Below are positions 411 through 47,991 of a stretch of 59,175 bases of DNA, piece by piece; positions within the stretch are counted from its first letter, which is position 1; each line of letters starts with the position of its first letter. The DNA is taken from IMG/VR virus record IMGVR_UViG_3300028392_000072, positions 1-59,175 of that record. One strand, given 5' to 3'. A model generated the notes under the pieces. That model was not told the DNA's origin. It saw nothing but the letters and a program-made list of their open reading frames with translations, and did not search any database. A program made the position numbers and the translations under genes. This DNA is from a virus. Taxonomy: Duplodnaviria; Caudoviricetes.

Positions 411-500
411 GAACCGGAGGAGACAGCGATCTCCCAACTTAGGGCCGGTTATAGTTTAGGCTATAAGAGAACACCGAACTCGCTCCTCGGTGTTTTCGCT
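411..500 (+). ncRNA. small structured RNA (unclassified)
   Basis: GC-rich island right after a TTATATATA motif; stems AACCGG/CCGGTT, GGAGA/TCTCC, TATAG/CTATA, GAGAACACCGA/TCGGTGTTTTC; loop AGCGA complementary to loop TCGCT. Confidence 0.55.
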
Positions 501-501
501 T

Positions 502-966
502 TTAAATAAGTTGATTTAATAAAATATTTCTTAATTCTGATTTATCTAATTCCATTTCAGAAAATATTGATAAACTGAATTTAGCAGTAACATCACCATT
601 TCTGAATTTAGAAGTAATTGTTAATCCATCTAAATATGTTTCTAATTCCCAAAATTCATTCTGAACAACTTGAGAATGTGTATTCCAATTATCTTTATTT
701 CTTGATAATTCTCCTTTTTGAAGTAATAATTTAAATCTAAATATATCCTGTAATGTATTATTATCATTATCCAATTTAATATCTAATAAAATCTTATCAT
801 AGATATATTTGGGAAAGGTTAGTTTAATACTTATTGGTTCCATACTATACCAAGTATTTTTACCTTTCATTTCGGATTTAAATTTACAAGGATATCCTAT
901 ACCATCATAATATAATTTCATAGATACAAATATAATGAAAAAATATGAATTAAATATTTTTTTCAA
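502..966 (-). CDS. hypothetical protein with C-terminal RxxxLxxL tail
   Basis: ORF ends KSELRNILLNQLI; true start may be the internal Met. Confidence 0.55.
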   Translation of the reverse strand: MKKIFNSYFFIIFVSMKLYYDGIGYPCKFKSEMKGKNTWYSMEPISIKLTFPKYIYDKILLDIKLDNDNNTLQDIFRFKLLLQKGELSRNKDNWNTHSQVVQNEFWELETYLDGLTITSKFRNGDVTAKFSLSIFSEMELDKSELRNILLNQLI

Positions 967-5918: not shown

Positions 5919-6701
5919 ATGAAACTAATTAAATCATATAAACTTTTTTTAGAAAAATTAATAACTGATCCTAATAGATTACTAGCTCCTCAAATGGATC
6001 TTTATCACGAATCTATTGAATTATTTCATGTTGGTGAACATATTTGGGCAGTTAAAGTGGAAGACTCTCATTCAAGAGCTATGTTATTTTTAAGACCACA
6101 AGAATTTTATGAAAGTGCGTTTGAAGAAATAATCAGTAAACAATTCAAATTTTCAAGATTTCAAGAACTTTACAAACAACATTACGGTAAACAAGAATTT
6201 ACTTATGGTTCTGATTGGTCTGGATTTAATATACCATCTACTATTTTAGAAGAATGTATGTTTAATATACCAGAAGATGAAATTAATACTTATGATAAAA
6301 TAATGTTATCTATTATTAAAACTATAAAAGAAGTTGAAGGTGATAGTAAGTATTATTTATTAGGAGTTGATGAGTTATCAAATAGATTACTTGAACACGA
6401 ATTTGCTCATGCTATGTGGTTTACTTTATCTGATTATAAAGAAGCTATGTCTAAGTTAAATACTGAATGTGATGGAGTTGTTAAAGATTCAATGTATAAA
6501 TGTATAACTGATTATGGTTATGCTGACCACGTTTTACCTGATGAATTACAAGCTTATATGGCGACCGGACTTGCTTCTAAAATGGAAGATATGAATATTC
6601 CTAATATAGAAGAATGGCAACAAAAATACAGAGAAGTATTTGATCAACATTATAATAAGAGTTTATATTCTGATCCGAAAAAGGTGGATGTTAGTTTTTA
6701 A
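5919..6701 (+). CDS. N-tagged zincin-like metalloprotein
   Basis: MKLIKSYKLFLE tag; HEFAH (HExxH) and downstream DELQAY. Confidence 0.6.
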   Translation: MKLIKSYKLFLEKLITDPNRLLAPQMDLYHESIELFHVGEHIWAVKVEDSHSRAMLFLRPQEFYESAFEEIISKQFKFSRFQELYKQHYGKQEFTYGSDWSGFNIPSTILEECMFNIPEDEINTYDKIMLSIIKTIKEVEGDSKYYLLGVDELSNRLLEHEFAHAMWFTLSDYKEAMSKLNTECDGVVKDSMYKCITDYGYADHVLPDELQAYMATGLASKMEDMNIPNIEEWQQKYREVFDQHYNKSLYSDPKKVDVSF

Positions 6702-33789: not shown

Positions 33790-34167
33790 TTATATTGTTT
33801 TATTTTCAGAAGTTTTGTTATTTAACAACTCATCTATTATTTCTTCTCTTCTTTCTTGTATATTTACAGGATTAAAAATATCAGATTTAATAGTTAGATT
33901 CATATTTGAATCAAAATCAACATCAATAGATTTAATTAAAGAACCTGGTGCTACAAATTTAATACTACTCATAGTAAAAGAACTATGATTTTCATACAGA
34001 TTTGTGAAGTATTTTAAATAATTAGTATTTTTATTTATATCAAGTGATATATAAGTTGTTGTATGAGATCCAATAGAAAGTTGAACTGTTACATCAACAA
34101 CATCAAATACATCATTATCTATTTTTACCCAAATAATATTTTCTTTATGTGGTGGTGTATATCTCAT
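33790..34167 (-). CDS. hypothetical protein with RxxxIxxLL tail
   Basis: ERREEIIDELL near C-terminus. Confidence 0.6.
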   Translation of the reverse strand: MRYTPPHKENIIWVKIDNDVFDVVDVTVQLSIGSHTTTYISLDINKNTNYLKYFTNLYENHSSFTMSSIKFVAPGSLIKSIDVDFDSNMNLTIKSDIFNPVNIQERREEIIDELLNNKTSENKTI

Positions 34168-34754
34168 TATGCTAATCTAAAGTTTTTTAAGAAGTCTCTC
34201 AAGAAAACATTCTTTTCACCTCCAATAATTTTAACCCAGGATTGATAAACCTTTTGGTCTTCCTTACTATTTGATTCTTTAATTCTTCTAGTAATTGGAT
34301 ATGCTTTACCATCACCTATAATTAAATCACCATAGTTCTCTATAACCCAGTCTTCGAAGTCTGGATATTTTTTCTTATTAAAAACTCGTTCATCAACAAT
34401 AAAAACAATAGCAGATAACATATCATTTAAATCCGGTTCGTAAAAGGTAGCAATCTCAATACCATTTTGTTCCAATAAAACTAAATTTGATTCCATTGAA
34501 CCAACAAATGCTTCATCGGTTTGATGATATCTATTTATAGAGTGATTACTAATTCCACCATTTAGTATAATAAATGTTTTCCAGTTATCAGCCCAATCAT
34601 TATACTGAGTATTTAGTGATTGGTTATGTTCACCAAGATACTTCATTTTTTGACCATATTCAACTACAGCATGTCCAAATTGTATTCCAATTTGTATACC
34701 ACTTAATTGATAAGGAGTTAGCCCATACATTCTTAATTCTAATTTATTGCTCAT
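34167..34754 (-). CDS. peptidyl-tRNA hydrolase 2-like protein
   Basis: GIQFGHA, IILNGG, FYEPDLN; start moved to MSNKLELRMY. Confidence 0.6.
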   Translation of the reverse strand: MSNKLELRMYGLTPYQLSGIQIGIQFGHAVVEYGQKMKYLGEHNQSLNTQYNDWADNWKTFIILNGGISNHSINRYHQTDEAFVGSMESNLVLLEQNGIEIATFYEPDLNDMLSAIVFIVDERVFNKKKYPDFEDWVIENYGDLIIGDGKAYPITRRIKESNSKEDQKVYQSWVKIIGGEKNVFLRDFLKNFRLA

Positions 34755-34764
34755 ATTTTTTATA

Positions 34765-35253
34765 TTAAATTTTATTAGATAGATTTCTATTACTGAATTG
34801 TTTAAAATCTGTAACTTCCATAAGAAGTTTATCTTTAATAAAATCAGGTATATTAACTTTGAATGACTTTTTAGGAATTTCAATTTCAGCAACTATCAAA
34901 TGGTGACCACTATTAAACATATCAACTTCCCACTTAAGATCATCATCAGGATAAATCCATCTTTCTTTTGAAATAAATTTAGCATCTTCTCCAGGAGTAT
35001 TACATCTTTTAGTGAAGAATTCATATTCTTCTTTTGTAAGATTATGCTCATCTTCAATATTAATACCTTTTGCTACAGACTTTTTAATAGTATGTATCCA
35101 AGATACTCCATTAATATTAGAATCCCAAGACCTGGCTCTTTCCCAGACACCTTTTGAGTTTTTCCAATACCATTGGTCAATTTTAACAATTTCAGATGGT
35201 GTCTTATCAGGCATTGCCTTTAGTAAGAATTTTCGTTCGATTTCTAGTTTCAT
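34765..35253 (-). CDS. CYTH-domain phosphatase
   Basis: EIERKFL, KER, WEVDMF, VAEIE, SN. Confidence 0.85.
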   Translation of the reverse strand: MKLEIERKFLLKAMPDKTPSEIVKIDQWYWKNSKGVWERARSWDSNINGVSWIHTIKKSVAKGINIEDEHNLTKEEYEFFTKRCNTPGEDAKFISKERWIYPDDDLKWEVDMFNSGHHLIVAEIEIPKKSFKVNIPDFIKDKLLMEVTDFKQFSNRNLSNKI

Positions 35254-35734: not shown

Positions 35735-35766
35735 CAAATATAAGCAAAAAGTTTATTTAAAACAAA
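35735..35766 (-). promoter_or_regulatory. Bacteroidota-type sigma promoter (representative copy)
   Basis: minus strand TTTG-N~19-TATATTTG; similar copies near 40340, 45340, 52145, 57035, 59055. Confidence 0.7.
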
Positions 35767-35791
35767 AAACTCACTAAATTAGTGAGTTTTT
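35764..35791 (-). terminator. terminator of the RNA operon
   Basis: AAAAACTCACT-AAATT-AGTGAGTTTTT. Confidence 0.75.
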
Positions 35792-35797
35792 ATTTTG

Positions 35798-35897
35798 TAG
35801 CCCGTATTGGATTCGAACCAATATCTATCAACCGAAAAGTTGACCGTCCTAATCAGATAAATCTGATTCTCTTGCGAGTCCTGTAGACTAACGGGCC
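35798..35897 (-). tRNA. tRNA-Glu-like; 8-nt anticodon loop CUUUUCGG; two hairpins inserted in the D-loop
   Basis: GGCCCGT/ACGGGCT acceptor, GTCT..GGAC D-stem, ATTGG-TTCGAAT-CCAAT T-arm. Confidence 0.75.
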
Positions 35898-35976
35898 ATG
35901 TGCGTGACTTTGAGGTAGTCACACTGTCAATGACAGACCCTCCTCTCGGAGTAAGTTAACCACTACGAAAACTTAG

Positions 35977-36052
35977 TAGTCAGTATTGGATTCGAACCAA
36001 TGTTTGATATCTGAATAGATATCCGTCCTGAATGCCGCTAGACGAACTGACC
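35977..36052 (-). tRNA. tRNA-Glu-like; 8-nt anticodon loop CUAUUCAG
   Basis: GGTCAGT/ACTGACT acceptor, GTCTAGCGG..AGGAC D-arm, GATAT/ATATC stem, canonical T-arm. Confidence 0.75.
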
Positions 36053-36060
36053 ATAAAAAA

Positions 36061-36908
36061 AAGGACTGAGATTACATCCTTATACGACAAGTCTTTGTTT
36101 GGATTATGTGTTCCCAAATCTATCCACCATCTTTTGGATGGTATCCTGTCAATACCGGTTAGTTAGACTAACCACTCCTTGAGTCACTGATCACTCTCCC
36201 TCTACTCTACTTATCCAACCCTCGCAGGCTAGTTCGGGATTCGACTCCCTATAAGCTTTTCGATGAAATCACACCAGTCTTTCGGACTTATGTGGCCAAG
36301 AACAACTCTTGACTAAGTAGGTACCTTTCATCAGTAACTAGATAACACTTTCGATTTGAGTTTAGTTTTGAATTAAATTTCAAATTTTAGTGCCGTAGAT
36401 TTATGTCGAAGTAGTGGTTATCTCTTAGTTTTCAAAGCTTTTGACCTCAAAAATTCTAGACTACTCCGTGTGATGCCTCCATCACAACTCTTTAAGATAT
36501 CTTCACTAGACCCTACCTTAGCAGGTCACCGACTTGGTAGTCAGTTTAGTGTTCATTAACAGCACCACCTGTACAATGAATTGTCTTTCGACTTTGAGAT
36601 ACCTCTCAAGTTGAAACTCGCAATGATGATAACTGGTTGGTCACCACTTCTCGCAAAATTCCTACGGATTATTCCTATTCTTCTTCCGAAGTCAACTAGA
36701 CAATCTACACTTACCTAGTCACTAAACCATTTCATCTACAGTGTTACCCTCGATTACTAAGGAATAGTGGTATTCCGTTTGCTTACCCGAGCTCAACCTT
36801 TCGGTCAAGCCGCAAACACATTTAGCATTTGTGATCACTTTATCCTCCTTTCAGAGATTATTTATGGACTATAAGCCGCCCCACTTACTCTAATGACCGA
36901 GGTCATTA
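36061..36908 (-). ncRNA. large structured ncRNA (~850 nt), GOLLD-like
   Basis: no ORF >=60 aa; visibly GC-richer than flanks; many GNRA/UUCG hairpins; ends AAGGATGTAATCTCAGTCCTT + U-tract; flanked by tRNAs; family assignment from memory. Confidence 0.6.
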
Positions 36909-36920
36909 TTTCTGTAATTT

Positions 36921-36937
36921 CAATATGTTAAAGAACT
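36921..36937 (-). promoter_or_regulatory. boxA-like antitermination element
   Basis: minus strand AGTTCTTTAACATATTG; second copy AGTTCATTGAAATAATT at ~37281-37297. Confidence 0.55.
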
Positions 36938-36961
36938 ATTTTTATAGTTTTGTTTTTAATT

Positions 36962-37090
36962 TTGTTTTACAAAGATAAATAATTTATTTTAATCTACCAA
37001 ATATTTTTGTAAAAACTAATTTCTTTATTTTATACTCTCTATTTCAATTTTGTTTTACAAAAGTAGATAATTTATTTTAATCTACCTAAT
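36962..37090 (-). promoter_or_regulatory. tandem duplicated Bacteroidota-type promoters for the large RNA
   Basis: two copies of GGTAGATTAAAATAAATTAT(T/C)TA(TC/CT)TTTGTAAAACAAA. Confidence 0.7.
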
Positions 37091-37193: not shown

Positions 37194-37266
37194 TAGCGGG
37201 GACAGGATTCGAACCTGTGATCTTTGGGTTATGAGCCCAACGAGTTGACCACTTCTCTACCCCGCA
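37194..37266 (-). tRNA. tRNA-fMet (CAT)
   Basis: 1:72 mismatch; TTGGG-CTCATAA-CCCAA with three G-C pairs. Confidence 0.9.
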
Positions 37267-37391: not shown

Positions 37392-39323
37392 TTAAATAGT
37401 ATCTAAATAATCTAATAAATTTTCTAATAAATTATCAGCTCTGTCAAAGAACTCTTTATTCTTATTAAATGTTTTATTAGCATCATAATAATTCATTCCC
37501 TTATTAGTATAAAAAGCTTCTACTAAATTATCAGGAACAAAAATACCAGAGTATTTTAATTGTAATATAAAAGGTGTTAAAACACTTTTTGGATCAATTG
37601 AGAATGGATCATGCATTACATCATTATAAGATTCAGGTAATTCTTTACCCTCATAATCATCAGCACCATCATCACCATGTGTATAGAAAGCCGCAACTTT
37701 TCCTTCTAAATGATTTCTTAACATATCATCATGTTTTCCAGAACGAGCAAACTTACCAGTTATTTCAGAATTTTTAATATTACCATCACCCATTAATTTT
37801 TTAGCATCTTCAATAGTTAAAGTAAGATTGGTACAAACTAAACGGTCAAATAATAATTTAATTTGAGAAGAAAGTGAATGCCAGTGAATAGGAGAAACTA
37901 TAATAAAAGCATCACATTCTTGTAATAAATTATAAACATCTAATTCTTTTAATAAATCTGGTTTTTCTTTATCACCTTTGAAATAACATGAACAATTATG
38001 TATTTTTATACCCTCACAGTTAAATTCATTTGAATTAGATACTTCAATATCATAAACCGGCTTTAGTCCAATTTCTCTAATGGATTTAACTTTTGAATAT
38101 TCATGCTTTAAGTCTCTTCTTTTAAGATTAAAATAATTATCTAATTTATTTCTTTTCTTTATATTTAAAAGTTTTATATTATCATGTATTATTTTAACAG
38201 AATATTGGTCTGATATAGTAAGTGAGGAAGTTCTTTGGTGTTTTTTACCTCTAACTACTATCTCTTTATGACTAATGTCAGATATATTAGACTTTATACC
38301 CACTCTTGATAACAGTAACTGAGCATCTCTTAGACAATTATAACTTGTGTTATATAAAATAATACCGCTTTTCGTAATACAGCCATCAGTTGATATCCAT
38401 CCATTAAAAAAGTTAAATATATCGGAGTTTGATTTGAAAACATCTATACTCAGTCTTCTATTTTTAGCACTTGTTTTAGGTAAAATACTAATCATTCTTT
38501 TACCTATTTTAGTTCCAAAATTTATTTTAATCATCTCTGTTGTATAATTATCATATAAATCGCTAATCTTATATGAATGGTCTATTTTATGGTCAATTAT
38601 AGATATTATTTCACTTCCTAGTTTATCTTTAATTTCCTCTATAAACTCAAATTCCTTTTTATCAACATATAATAATGGTGTATTATTTGCAAATGTTCCA
38701 TCTCCCCATATCAATCCATAAATTAGAAACTCATTTTGTAAAAAGTCATCTTTGAAAATAAAATCTGTTTCTATATAAGGTATATTATCACCAACTTTTA
38801 TATACTTTAGTTCAACCCATTCTTCTTTTCTAAAGAACTTCCAATTAGATTCCTTTGTTCTATATCTTTCCGTTGATAGAACTTTTATTTTATGATCATT
38901 TGTTATCTCCAGTTTTCTACCATCAGTTAGTTTTAACTCATATATTTTTTCAGACTCGGATGTCTTCATGTGATTTAAAACAACATTACCATCTTGTAAT
39001 ATATCACCTATTTTAATATTTTGAATCTCTATAAATCCATCTTTTGTATGCACTCTCTGGTCATAAGCAACACATTTAAAATGGCAGTGATATCCACCAG
39101 CAGTTGATATACATCCTTTACATGGTTGAATGGTAGGTCTCTTAGATTGATTAACAGCAAGATCAATAATTTTGAAATTAACAAATGGTGACCATTTTTC
39201 AACCATATGTTCTACAACACCGTGTGTTTTGGAATCCATACCAGAACAGGTTTCTTTATCTCTTGGTGATCCTTGGAATATTAAAACTTTTGGCTTTTTA
39301 TCTCCTAATTTTCTTACTTTCAT
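37392..39323 (-). CDS. iron-sulfur flavoprotein / NADPH-dependent FMN reductase family, intein-containing
   Basis: FQGSPR, PCKGC..HCHFK|CSC, SPIHW, LFDRL. Confidence 0.8.
   Translation of the reverse strand: MKVRKLGDKKPKVLIFQGSPRDKETCSGMDSKTHGVVEHMVEKWSPFVNFKIIDLAVNQSKRPTIQPCKGCISTAGGYHCHFKCVAYDQRVHTKDGFIEIQNIKIGDILQDGNVVLNHMKTSESEKIYELKLTDGRKLEITNDHKIKVLSTERYRTKESNWKFFRKEEWVELKYIKVGDNIPYIETDFIFKDDFLQNEFLIYGLIWGDGTFANNTPLLYVDKKEFEFIEEIKDKLGSEIISIIDHKIDHSYKISDLYDNYTTEMIKINFGTKIGKRMISILPKTSAKNRRLSIDVFKSNSDIFNFFNGWISTDGCITKSGIILYNTSYNCLRDAQLLLSRVGIKSNISDISHKEIVVRGKKHQRTSSLTISDQYSVKIIHDNIKLLNIKKRNKLDNYFNLKRRDLKHEYSKVKSIREIGLKPVYDIEVSNSNEFNCEGIKIHNCSCYFKGDKEKPDLLKELDVYNLLQECDAFIIVSPIHWHSLSSQIKLLFDRLVCTNLTLTIEDAKKLMGDGNIKNSEITGKFARSGKHDDMLRNHLEGKVAAFYTHGDDGADDYEGKELPESYNDVMHDPFSIDPKSVLTPFILQLKYSGIFVPDNLVEAFYTNKGMNYYDANKTFNKNKEFFDRADNLLENLLDYLDTI
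37995..39074 (-). mobile_element. intein (360 aa) with LAGLIDADG endonuclease
   Basis: starts CVAYDQRV; block B TNDH; YGLIWGDG and GWISTDG; VYDIEV; ends HN followed by Cys. Confidence 0.9.
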
Positions 39324-40399: not shown

Positions 40400-40906
40400 T
40401 TAAATTGATATTACTTTATCAAAACCTTCTTCTGGAGTAACTGGTTGATATGATGAAATCATACTTTTAATAACATGAATTGGAATATCTTTATTTTCTT
40501 CCTCAATTCTTTTCTTATTTCTTCTTTCATATTCATCTTCTGATAAAATTGGAAAGATAACCGCTAACTTATAGTAATCATTAGAGAAATAATTTAAATT
40601 ATGTTTTCTACGTTTAGAAGCCATATGAGTCATATCAATAATAACATTTTTCTTTTGTAGGTTAGCATCAACAAGTCTTTCATGTAGAATTCTATCTACT
40701 TCTTTTTGATCGACATTTTTAAATGCTTCTGTATAGTTTTTTGAACCATATACTTCCATAACAATATCATCACGACTAATTACATTAGTTGTTGGGAAAT
40801 TTTGTTTAATCCAAGTTGTTTTACCCGAAGCCGGAGGGCCGATTAGAACAATAACAAATGGTTCTTTAATATCAGTATTAAACTGATTAAACTTTTTTAT
40901 TTTCAT
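40400..40906 (-). CDS. P-loop kinase (AAA_33 / PNK-kinase-like)
   Basis: GPPASGKTT, SRDD, IIDMT, RNKKR. Confidence 0.8.
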   Translation of the reverse strand: MKIKKFNQFNTDIKEPFVIVLIGPPASGKTTWIKQNFPTTNVISRDDIVMEVYGSKNYTEAFKNVDQKEVDRILHERLVDANLQKKNVIIDMTHMASKRRKHNLNYFSNDYYKLAVIFPILSEDEYERRNKKRIEEENKDIPIHVIKSMISSYQPVTPEEGFDKVISI

Positions 40907-46145: not shown

Positions 46146-47783
46146 TTAGACTAAAGAAAAACCTTCTTTCAAACTTACCGTTTTATTGAAACTTTTACCA
46201 TCAGTATCTAAAATATAATACCCCTTTCTCATCATTTGAACTGGCTCCTTGACGTTTAAAACGTGTGGTTCAAAGATTGCCTTATCATTAATTATAAGTG
46301 AATCTGTGTTGATGTAATTGATAAAATCATCTTCATTTTTATCCGGTGATTCATCATTGAATAATCTATCATATTCATTTACATTAACTCTAACTCCATG
46401 TTCAGCAGATACCCAGTGAATAGTTCCTTTAATCTTTCTTTCAAAAGTCATACCAGATCTTGTTAAAGGGTCGTAAGTACATCTAATTTCAATAACTTCT
46501 CCACTATCATTCTTGATAACTTCATTCGCTTTAATAACATAAGCACCTTTCAATCTTACTTCACCACCCAACTTTAATCTGTGGAATTTGTTATTAGCTT
46601 CTTCTCTGAAATCTTCCGATTCAATAAATAACTCACCACTAAAAGGAATCATTCTAGTACCAGCACTTTCATCACCAGGATTGTTTTCAACTTCAACCAT
46701 TTCAGTTCCATCATCCCAATTAGTAATAACTAACTTAACGGGATTCATTACACCCATCAATCTATTAGCAACTACATTCAAATCAGTTCTCAAACATTCT
46801 TCTAAAAGCAAGTAAGAAACAACTGACTCTTTTCTAGTAACAGAAATTCTATCACAGAAATCTTTAATAGCATTTGGTGTAAAACCTCTTCTTCTTAAAC
46901 CAGAAATAGTTGGCATTCTTGGATCATTCCAACCATCTACAAATCCTTCTTCAACTAATCTTTTTAATTTTCTCTTTGACATAACTGTATAGTCAATGTT
47001 CAAACGAGCAAACTCAGTTTCTTCTGGAAGTGGATTTTCTAAATCACAATTTTCCAAGACCCACATATATAAAGGTCTATGAACTTCAAATTCTAAAGTA
47101 CATAAAGAATCAGTGATACCTTCTTTATAATCTGAAAGTGGATGAGCAAAGTCATACATTGGATAAATCTTCCAAGTATCACCAGTTCTGTGGTGTGACT
47201 TACTGATAATTCTATAAAGAACCGGATCTCTTAAAATCATATTAGGAGAAGTCATATCAATATTGGCTCTCAAGATTTTAGAACCTTCAGAGAATTCACC
47301 TAATATCATTCTATTAAATAGGTCTAAGTTTTCTTCTATACTTCTAGATTTATAAGGTGAGTCTTTACCAACTGAAGTTGGTGTTCCTTTTAAGTTAGCA
47401 ATTTCTTCAGATGTTGAATCATCAACATAAGCTAATCCTTTCTTAATTAAAGTAACAGCACATTCATAAAGAAAATCAAAATAATCAGAGGTGTATCTGA
47501 TTTCACTTGGAGTATAACCAAGCCATTTTATATCTTCAATCATTGAATCTACAAACTCTTTTCTTTCAGTTGTTGGATTCGTGTCGTCAAATCTTAACAC
47601 ACACGGAGCATTATACTTTTCTGCTAATCCAAAATTTAATATAATGGATTTAGCGTGACCTAAGTGAAGACCACCCACAACTCTACCATCGTTTAGTATA
47701 GCTCCATTTGGTTCTGGTGGAAAACGAAGTTTTAACTTATCAAGATTTCCTTTTTCTAATATTTTTTCTTCTATGAAATTCAT
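46146..47783 (-). CDS. glnS: glutaminyl-tRNA synthetase
   Basis: RFPPEPNG, HLGH, RFDDTNP, YPMYDFAH, SLCTLEF, MSKR, KGTIHWVS. Confidence 0.95.
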   Translation of the reverse strand: MNFIEEKILEKGNLDKLKLRFPPEPNGAILNDGRVVGGLHLGHAKSIILNFGLAEKYNAPCVLRFDDTNPTTERKEFVDSMIEDIKWLGYTPSEIRYTSDYFDFLYECAVTLIKKGLAYVDDSTSEEIANLKGTPTSVGKDSPYKSRSIEENLDLFNRMILGEFSEGSKILRANIDMTSPNMILRDPVLYRIISKSHHRTGDTWKIYPMYDFAHPLSDYKEGITDSLCTLEFEVHRPLYMWVLENCDLENPLPEETEFARLNIDYTVMSKRKLKRLVEEGFVDGWNDPRMPTISGLRRRGFTPNAIKDFCDRISVTRKESVVSYLLLEECLRTDLNVVANRLMGVMNPVKLVITNWDDGTEMVEVENNPGDESAGTRMIPFSGELFIESEDFREEANNKFHRLKLGGEVRLKGAYVIKANEVIKNDSGEVIEIRCTYDPLTRSGMTFERKIKGTIHWVSAEHGVRVNVNEYDRLFNDESPDKNEDDFINYINTDSLIINDKAIFEPHVLNVKEPVQMMRKGYYILDTDGKSFNKTVSLKEGFSLV

Positions 47784-47883: not shown

Positions 47884-47910
47884 ATATTACTACTATCTAG
47901 AGTAGTTTTG

Positions 47911-47991
47911 CTATCCGGGTAGGACTCGAACCTACACGCCTTTCGGCATCCGCTTCAAAGGCGGATGTGGCTGCCATTTCACCACCGGACA
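47911..47991 (-). tRNA. tRNA with Gln anticodon (TTG) and Leu-like body with long variable arm
   Basis: TCCGC-CTTTGAA-GCGGA; V-arm GCC-GAAA-GGC; G73. Confidence 0.85.

Follow-up and report, generated by a model that had tools for sequence, protein, structure and literature searches.

Paralogues of tRNA-Glu with eight-base anticodon loops lie behind a GOLLD RNA in a phage fragment

Known systems closest to the locus

GOLLD is among the largest structured RNAs of bacteria and phages and forms a nanocage; its function is not known. Published work places GOLLD in tRNA islands, with a Met-tRNA upstream of the env-38 GOLLD, and describes a GOLLD linker that can hold tRNAs (10.1101/2024.12.08.627333, PMC12990946). 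Here we analyze a 59,175-nucleotide stretch of viral DNA (Duplodnaviria, Caudoviricetes; hereafter the window), a 59-kb fragment of virus record IMGVR_UViG_3300028392_000072 that is estimated to be 15% complete, in which GOLLD is followed by two tRNA-Glu-like genes, A and B, with eight bases in the anticodon loop. Both are genuine genes, and the tRNA-Glu paralogues to which they belong form a distinct and conserved family, which we label Glu*. As in the GOLLD neighborhoods described earlier, a tRNA-Met lies upstream; whereas ordinary tRNAs are described there in the linker, the window has noncanonical tRNA-Glu paralogues ∼10 nt from the GOLLD 3′ end, and its relatives have them also at the 5′ end.

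Eight-base loops have been described in other settings. Suppressor tRNAs of the +1 class (sufD, SufB2, and SufJ types) and quadruplet tRNAs made by engineering have, like Glu*, one extra loop base with U33 and R37 kept, but they are single mutant or engineered genes, whereas Glu* is natural, conserved, and multicopy, with a paired 32:38′ and no codon-context avoidance. In yeast mitochondrial tRNA-Thr1(UAG), a natural tRNA, the 8-nt loop is likewise the normal form; this tRNA alone reads a reassigned codon box (PMC3113583, PMC7609411), whereas Glu* mostly occurs alongside canonical tRNA-Glu and looks ill suited to EF-Tu. Mutations in the loop can let phage tRNAs evade anticodon nucleases, as reported in PMC10264068. 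GOLLD in tRNA islands, eight-base loops in suppressors and tRNA-Thr1, and nuclease escape by phage tRNAs are already known. A literature search, with supplements and most subscription journals outside its reach, found no description of an eight-base-loop tRNA-Glu family in phages or bacteria, or beside GOLLD, and the Glu* family is apparently undescribed.

Canonical bacterial and phage tRNA-Glu(UUC) shares with Glu* the 7-bp acceptor stem, the D-arm GUCU/AGGAC, the 4-nt variable loop, the GGUUCGAAUCC T-arm, and the UUC anticodon, and the canonical genes of related phages also share G1·U72/A73. The canonical form, however, has a 7-base loop with C32/A38, whereas Glu* has an 8-base loop with a Watson–Crick 32:38′, an AU-rich or bulged T-stem, and D-loop inserts of up to ∼140 nt. 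At mascRNA, behind MALAT1, and in mitochondrial tRNA punctuation, an RNase P cut at a tRNA-shaped element makes the 3′ end of a long RNA. By analogy, A resembles mascRNA in being a tRNA-shaped element directly behind a long noncoding RNA (ncRNA), and the anticodon arm of mascRNA is reduced; both precedents come from eukaryotes and imply no homology, and cleavage at A is a prediction. Staphylococcus has nonproteinogenic tRNA-Gly, extra isoacceptors with an altered T-stem and poor EF-Tu binding that are reserved for cell-wall synthesis. An altered T-stem is common to these and Glu*, but the loop of Glu* is altered as well, and no consumer enzyme is known for it.

Two tRNA-Glu paralogues in the GOLLD locus

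The original prediction, made from the sequence of the window, had placed two tRNA-Glu-like genes with eight-base anticodon loops at this site, and both exist, on the minus strand, as do all features of the GOLLD locus given below. A (35977 to 36052; 76 nt) has the loop CUAUUCAG and B (35798 to 35897; 100 nt) the loop CUUUUCGG, so that neither has the 7-nt loop of a canonical elongator tRNA. ARAGORN calls A a tRNA with the four-base anticodon "attc," and Rfam tRNA (RF00005) matches it with 41.6 bits (E = 5.6e-07 in an E-value scan), above the gathering score of 29; A is absent from the list of the whole-window gathering scan. B has no ARAGORN call and only a partial Rfam tRNA match of 16.1 bits, below the gathering score, because its D-loop carries an insert of ∼27 nt. 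A family covariance model, R1, built from 20 family members (74 model positions), scored 83.3 bits for A and 66.6 bits (E = 4.4e-20) for B over all 74 positions, with the rest of the window at no more than 31.4 bits.

The Glu-type arms that had been read in both genes are borne out by inspection (D-arm GUCU/AGGAC, 4-nt variable loop, UUC), and G1·U72 with A73 is common to A, B, and the canonical tRNA-Glu genes of related phages. The identity set of Escherichia coli tRNA-Glu comprises U11-A24, U13·G22, a variable loop that lacks position 47, and UUC; inspection found this tRNA-Glu body, with its 4-nt variable loop, in A and B. Position 37 is A in A and G in B. CCA is not encoded in A, in B, or in the phage's other tRNAs. 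The two D-loop hairpins noticed earlier belong to B (CUC-GCAA-GAG and AAUCAGA-UUUA-UCUGAUU), and the minimum free-energy fold of B is a cloverleaf plus these two hairpins. Homologs of B in loci L056, L097, L001, and L168 carry compensatory changes, with CCC-GUAA-GGG and AAACAGA-UUUA-UCUGUUU as the corresponding hairpins in L168. The sequence of A is identical in L056.

Sequencing error had been argued against on the ground that two divergent copies share the anomaly, and an independent DNA run from another sample (X2) reproduces both genes: its contigs match 35933 to 36146 with no differences and 35740 to 35930 with one, at position 35778, which falls in the terminator and outside both genes. 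Of the stretch's sampled words, 57% or more also occur in each of 13 other DNA runs, from 10 studies, not counting the possible source sample. Single U-run matches such as L239 could be homopolymer errors, but CUAUUCAG involves no homopolymer change, and stems covary while loops stay constant. For A and B, the independent run and the compensatory stem changes refute an assembly artifact or a decaying pseudogene, and for the family at large such an origin is scarcely credible.

The nearest named relatives of the window, LR745206 (635 kb; W01) and LR756502 (642 kb; W02), are uncultured huge phages in which the region is 75 to 77% identical and GOLLD is present. Loop length in homologs, proposed earlier as a check, was read in copies located by position alone in six related huge-phage records (A and B of the window, L056, and L097; the upstream copy and A of L162 and L002; and the upstream copy, A, and B of L001). 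All 13 have an eight-base loop containing UUC, while nine different sequences occur in the 5′ halves of their anticodon stems and the 3′ halves change to match. Because all 13 syntenic copies keep the eight-base loop, it is not an artifact, and no 7-nt homolog in this set speaks against the prediction.

The arrangement around GOLLD is also conserved. W01 has A-S-B, where S is a spacer, as in the window, plus a third copy upstream, and W02 and L162 have one Glu* upstream of GOLLD, directly after a promoter-like site, and one downstream; GOLLD is thus flanked by Glu* on both sides in L162, as it is in L002. Viral contigs scanned for a GOLLD 3′-end pattern gave at least 119 stretches, with GOLLD detected by nhmmer profile in 54 of those listed. 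Among the matches listed, in the clade nearest the window (L056, L097, L099, W01, W02), a Glu* with an eight-base loop follows every GOLLD after ∼10 nt except in L046, where GOLLD is directly followed by a terminator; L099 is the same region as L162. The 42 distinct GOLLD 3′ flanks among the matches listed contain, by ARAGORN and starting ∼10 to 30 nt past the GOLLD 3′ end, tRNA-Met(CAU) in 8 and Glu* in 2, and one further Glu* directly 3′ of GOLLD, found by eye in L099, makes 3 of 42. Thus, tRNAs directly 3′ of GOLLD recur.

From 5′ to 3′ the locus consists of a tRNA-Met(CAU), an AT-rich stretch with two promoter-like repeats, GOLLD, a linker, A, the spacer S, B, and a terminator. The conserved 3′ domain of GOLLD (36063 to 36468) matches Rfam RF02032 with 265.1 bits (gathering score 150) over model positions 1 to 416 of 416; A and B lie outside the model and are therefore neighbors of GOLLD, not members. 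The variable 5′ domain spans 36469 to 36940, its 5′ limit being approximate and set by RNA contigs over 36078 to 36905 and by conservation with L162 and L001 from near 36936. The linker from the GOLLD 3′ end to G1 of A, UUUUUUUUAU (36053 to 36062; 10 nt), was identified by inspection; it is U-rich, like the short linkers of L056, L097, L162, L001, and L002, and is a putative RNase P leader. A promoter-like site of the Bacteroidota type (TTTG-N-TAnnTTTG) matches at 36970 to 37001, upstream of GOLLD, and an intrinsic terminator (35765 to 35791), with a 12-pair stem followed by a T-run, begins 7 nt past the discriminator base of B. Because promoter-like and terminator-like sites were found at these two positions and, in pattern and terminator scans of the window, none between GOLLD and B, a single transcription unit seems to hold GOLLD, A, S, and B. 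A is thereby a tRNA-shaped element 10 nt 3′ of a long ncRNA and within the same unit, the arrangement of a tRNA-like 3′-end element. The earlier interpretation was right that these are conserved tRNA-Glu derivatives but missed this GOLLD and spacer context.

The promoter pattern (TTTG, 18 to 22 nt, TAnnTTTG) has 10 matches in the window, versus 4.19 expected, and the next one past that of GOLLD (35766 to 35735) is beyond the terminator. The motif TTTGGTAGATT also precedes small-RNA genes in L001, L162, and L002. As an observation in its own right, promoter-like sites sharing a TTTGGTRGATT motif stand before small-RNA genes at 37001 to 36970, 37353 to 37322, and 49698 to 49667 (minus strand) of the window and in L001, L162, and L002. 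Sites of this type suggest a Bacteroidota host.

Spacer S (35898 to 35976; ∼79 nt) is a conserved structured RNA. RNAalifold on six distinct homologs, with homologs in L056, L097, L001, L162, and L168, predicts four hairpins, with double compensatory changes in 5 of the 21 predicted pairs. The first hairpin and its 12-nt loop are invariant in sequence save one A-U to G-U change in the closing pair, and this loop resembles the 5′ part of the Glu D-arm. S has no Rfam match at E values up to 10.

GOLLD is highly expressed: contigs of three metatranscriptome runs from three studies (X15, X16, X17) cover 36078 to 36905, and summed depths reach the thousands in one run. RNA contigs of X15 and X17, from two studies, both end at 36078, 15 nt inside the Rfam 3′ limit, whereas those of the DNA run continue across A; contigs cannot show RNA ends, so the shared stop is a weak hint of one. 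X16 has one low-depth, diverged contig on 35830 to 35899, with 6 differences in 70 bases.

Anticodon-loop closure, T-stem, and the wider family

Across 26 distinct Glu* copies, 32:38′ is paired without exception (CG in 19, UA in 6, GC in 1), and 33:37′ is always U with G or A. Further copies were found by scans for a Glu D-arm followed by an eight-base loop, and the scan patterns fixed U33, UUC, and R37, so that the invariance of these positions in the 26-copy alignment arises partly by construction; the 13 syntenic copies are free of that bias, and the unbiased evidence on the loop is the 32:38′ covariation together with the syntenic set. Because 32:38′ pairs in all 26 copies, the loop can close, giving a hairpin of 6 to 7 bp; the outermost pair, 27:43, is broken in 7 copies. 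The 7-pair anticodon helix is 92.9% paired, compared with 61.7% in shuffled columns and at most 45.1% when slid by one to three columns. That the loop can zip into a 7-bp stem with a tetraloop, as the original prediction proposed for A, was reproduced by ViennaRNA, in which A and B fold as cloverleaves with an anticodon arm of this form; the 7-bp form has −5.1 kcal/mol, and the open form of the two arms −0.6 and −0.9 kcal/mol. The extra loop base varies (U, A, or C), and position 37 is G in 15 of the 26 copies, B among them. Six loci that are better parsed as a 7-base loop in a shifted register (L170, L174, L176, L178, L245, L280) were dropped from the pair counts. L239, from a Flavobacterium isolate, was also left out: its 32:38′ is C:U, its T-stem is strong, and a canonical copy lies at a distance of 118 nt. 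A homopolymer error or recent mutation may explain it.

The T-stem of Glu* is also altered. In 25 of 26 copies it has at most one G-C pair at 49-65, 50-64, and 51-63, or a bulge (a bulged U), whereas at these positions two or more G-C pairs are present in 21 of the 22 canonical phage tRNA-Glu genes that were parsed. According to the Uhlenbeck laboratory, these three pairs reportedly set EF-Tu affinity, and Glu is said to need a tight-binding tRNA body. With G-C pairs at three positions as a proxy, the T-stem of Glu* is weakened for EF-Tu. D-loop inserts range from none (A of the window and of W02) through one or two hairpins to ∼140 nt. The longest belongs to a Glu* copy of L166 (∼420 to 610, minus strand) that starts 1 nt after the preceding Glu* gene.

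Glu* is not confined to GOLLD loci. Three large contigs of one sample (G001, G002, G003) carry from two to at least seven Glu* copies each, often in small units consisting of a promoter, a Glu*, a spacer, a Glu*, and a terminator. Other phage copies are in L158, L165, L169, L171, L172/L175, and L177, and in L168, a locus without GOLLD, a tRNA-Met is followed by S and a B-type copy. In L172 (∼6380 to 6480, minus strand), three tandem hairpins (CCAGGUAACCCCCUGG) separate two Glu* genes. Matches in L156, L161, L163, L167, and L173 are not tRNAs.

A scan of bacterial genome contigs yielded 13 tRNA-like matches among 120 loci listed; the other 107 fail the acceptor-stem test and are not tRNAs. Six of the 13 are stand-alone genes of Planctomycetota, including one in the isolate Novipirellula herctigrandis CA13 (these chromosomal paralogues are at L200 352 to 426, L227 4246 to 4320, L255 3787 to 3860, and L263 5083 to 5157 and in L272 and L282). 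The three Planctomycetota genomes with a pattern-matching canonical copy have the eight-base-loop gene beside canonical tRNA-Glu(UUC), and in three genomes the same SHD1/HEAT-repeat protein is encoded upstream of it. In Pirellulales, the bacterial form occurs sporadically: among 61 genomes sampled, just one, that on which the sample was centered, fits the strict pattern. Over 1.19 Mb of sequence, in 132 loci chosen without regard to Glu, ARAGORN called 216 distinct tRNAs, of which only 4 have odd loops, and 2 of these 4 are GOLLD-adjacent Glu*.

Processing model and rival explanations

The best explanation, to which we assign a probability of roughly 45%, is that A and B are Glu* paralogues within the GOLLD unit that serve as tRNA punctuation for RNase P and 3′ processing and whose products are poor decoders. 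A single transcript carrying GOLLD, A, S, and B would run from the promoter to the terminator. RNase P would cut it at the G1 of both A and B. Past each discriminator base, the cut would be made by 3′ tRNA processing, through either RNase Z or exonucleases, and CCA would then be added. These cleavages would define the GOLLD 3′ end and release a small RNA of ∼80 nt from S, while A and B would persist as stable RNAs of tRNA shape. With a closed loop, a weak or bulged T-stem, and an expandable D-loop, A and B would be poor decoders on the ribosome rather than efficient quadruplet readers. We infer the cleavages, the stability of the products, and their poor use by EF-Tu and the ribosome.

Several observations weigh against this explanation. 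None of the three RNA runs (X15, X16, X17) has a contig on A or one that joins GOLLD to A, although, with contigs and library size selection, this is no evidence of absence. Glu* exists without GOLLD, in two phage genomes rated 100% complete (G001 and G003) in which GOLLD was searched for and not found by the tool that detects it in the window, and as a stand-alone chromosomal gene in some Planctomycetota. G003 (348 kb) has at least seven Glu* copies, and canonical tRNA-Glu was searched for there and not found, which would suit a decoding role. A pure processing handle, moreover, would not need an invariant UUC, which points to GluRS or another reader of the anticodon. The link of T-stem G-C content to EF-Tu affinity is itself taken from general background. 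Because UUC is invariant and the family exists without GOLLD, the released Glu* would have a function of its own, and because T-stems are weak, the loop is closed, and inserts are large, that function would not be ordinary decoding. Glu* appears to be a natural derivative of tRNA that was selected for work outside standard decoding, and few such cases are known.

The canonical tRNA-Glu genes of the nearest relatives have 7-base loops and lie in a separate tRNA island (three UUC and one CUC in W01, two and one in W02), and synteny suggests that the window's own island is just beyond its end. Glu* is thus not needed for decoding in these relatives. Codon context was read in the 54 open reading frames (ORFs) of the window with at least 150 aa (16,087 codons, 925 of them GAA). 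The base after GAA is A in 34.9% and U in 25.3% of cases, compared with 37.8% and 24.4% after all codons (chi-square, P = 0.25), so in-frame GAAA and GAAU, with roughly 550 such sites in the window, are not avoided in these 54 ORFs. A candidate +1 site at the overlap of ORFs 34765 to 35253 and 34167 to 34892 was rejected, the downstream ORF having an ATG at 34754, after the upstream stop, so that the overlap is only mechanical.

GluRS is encoded in the window, as had been noted (55562 to 57064, minus strand; bacterial type; PF00749, E = 1.3e-66, with PF19269, E = 1.5e-19), and has homologs in W01 and W02 (73% identical in both) and in G001; none was found in G003. Because G003 combines at least seven Glu* copies with no detected GluRS homolog, obligatory charging by the phage's own GluRS is excluded. 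GluTR (PF05201) was found in none of the five phage genomes searched, with a valid control, and a search for LanB (PF04738) was uninformative, its control having matched nowhere.

The main rival to processing by tRNA punctuation, unlikely yet kept alive by G003, is that Glu* genes are working elongators that read GAA and GAG as triplets despite the extra base, the remodeled loop perhaps resisting a host anticodon nuclease. Besides G003, this is favored by L169, L177, and the Helicobacteraceae metagenome-assembled genome L312, in which Glu* is part of an ordinary tRNA array, as the only tRNA-Glu of the locus retrieved, and of which L169 and L312 encode CCA, and by the canonical order of U33, UUC, and R37. 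Precedents for it are a decoder with an 8-nt loop (PMC3113583) and phage tRNAs that evade anticodon nucleases via loop mutations (PMC10264068). The anatomy argues the other way, with weak or bulged T-stems in 25 of 26 copies, a mismatched 27:43 in 7 of 26, inserts of up to ∼140 nt, and a Watson–Crick 32:38′; the window's relatives already have three to four canonical tRNA-Glu genes, and a tRNA-Glu-specific nuclease was not identified in this analysis. The extra base in the anticodon loops of A and B is of the quadruplet type, and the original prediction offered +1 frameshift suppression, with GAAA (UUUC) or GAAU (AUUC) read as quadruplets, as one of three functions. The loop architecture (32, U33, four bases, R37, 38), with U, A, or C as the extra base, is that of known and engineered quadruplet readers, and natural +1 suppressors with eight-base loops exist (PMC9094753). 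Efficient suppression is nevertheless unlikely because the relatives have canonical tRNA-Glu and in-frame GAAA and GAAU are not avoided; two to at least seven copies per genome, weak or bulged T-stems, and large D-loop inserts also disfavor it, and a conserved stand-alone bacterial gene would be costly as a constitutive frameshifter. We give such suppression only a slim chance, with low-level frameshifting by Glu* possible. A natural eight-base loop, then, need not mean frameshift suppression. Nothing in the analysis speaks for or against nuclease decoys, another of the functions proposed earlier.

It is rather improbable that Glu* genes encode nonproteinogenic Glu carriers, charged by GluRS, largely ignored by EF-Tu and the ribosome, and feeding an aminoacyl-tRNA-dependent enzyme. 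In E. coli, A37 is a GluRS identity element, and G37 in 15 of 26 copies, including B, runs counter to this idea, as do the GluTR result, the GluRS result for G003, and the fact that no consumer enzyme was identified. It draws support from the Glu-type D-arm, 4-nt variable loop, UUC, and G1·U72/A73 being kept together with weak T-stems, from the GluRS genes of the window, W01, W02, and G001, and from E. coli GluRS, which can charge a tRNA-Glu scaffold with a four-base anticodon (PMC9094753). The proposal of a nonribosomal Glu donor charged by phage GltX, made earlier, gains some indirect support from the T-stems, but charging by the phage enzyme cannot be obligatory for it. About equally doubtful is a version in which Glu*, charged by GluRS and kept off EF-Tu and the ribosome, is a reserved Glu carrier or adaptor that possibly docks into, or is loaded by, the GOLLD nanocage; if so, GOLLD would gain its first concrete molecular partner. 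A still smaller probability attaches to tRNA-likes that stay covalently on GOLLD, so that the multimeric cage bears tRNA-shaped arms for display, for storage, or as bait. Covalently linked tRNAs have been proposed for GOLLD (Kretsch et al., bioRxiv 10.1101/2024.12.08.627333), and a tRNA embedded in the GOLLD linker, with an "inhibited storage" idea, appears in a 2026 RNA Biology review (PMC12990946); Glu* lies on one or both sides of GOLLD with a linker of only ∼10 nt. Against tethering, RNA contigs of two studies end at 36078 and those of none of the three runs join GOLLD to A, which is a weak hint; Glu* occurs in phages and bacteria that lack GOLLD, and the GOLLD of L046 stands directly before a terminator. 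The fixed arrangement of a cage RNA and Glu* in this phage clade gives defined constructs and a defined candidate partner for the study of processing, tethering, and loading.

Some further features of the window lie outside the GOLLD unit. The canonical tRNA-Met(CAU) upstream (37194 to 37266, minus strand) was found by ARAGORN and by Rfam (68.7 bits) and has its own promoter-like site (37353 to 37322). A GlnRS-type enzyme is also encoded (46146 to 47783). Class-I tRNAs (Gln, Lys, Arg, Asn) of 82 to 90 nt with long, hairpin-forming variable arms occur in the window and in W01, the positions being 47910 to 47991 (minus strand) of the window, L024 1294 to 1380, and L026 556 to 645 and 899 to 985. 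Other tRNA-like genes with eight- or six-base anticodon loops are present in related or other phages, at L027 865 to 938, L001 1099 to 1186, L194 214 to 289, and L132 9228 to 9311; they include an Asp-like gene with the loop CAGUAGGG, one called "gt," one "tcta," and one "tc." The ORF at 37392 to 39323 (minus strand) encodes a flavodoxin/FMN-reductase-like protein interrupted by an intein with splicing and LAGLIDADG domains. The small ORF at 40400 to 40906 (minus strand) is kinase-like, of the AAA_33 type, matches KTI12 weakly, and might serve RNA or tRNA metabolism.

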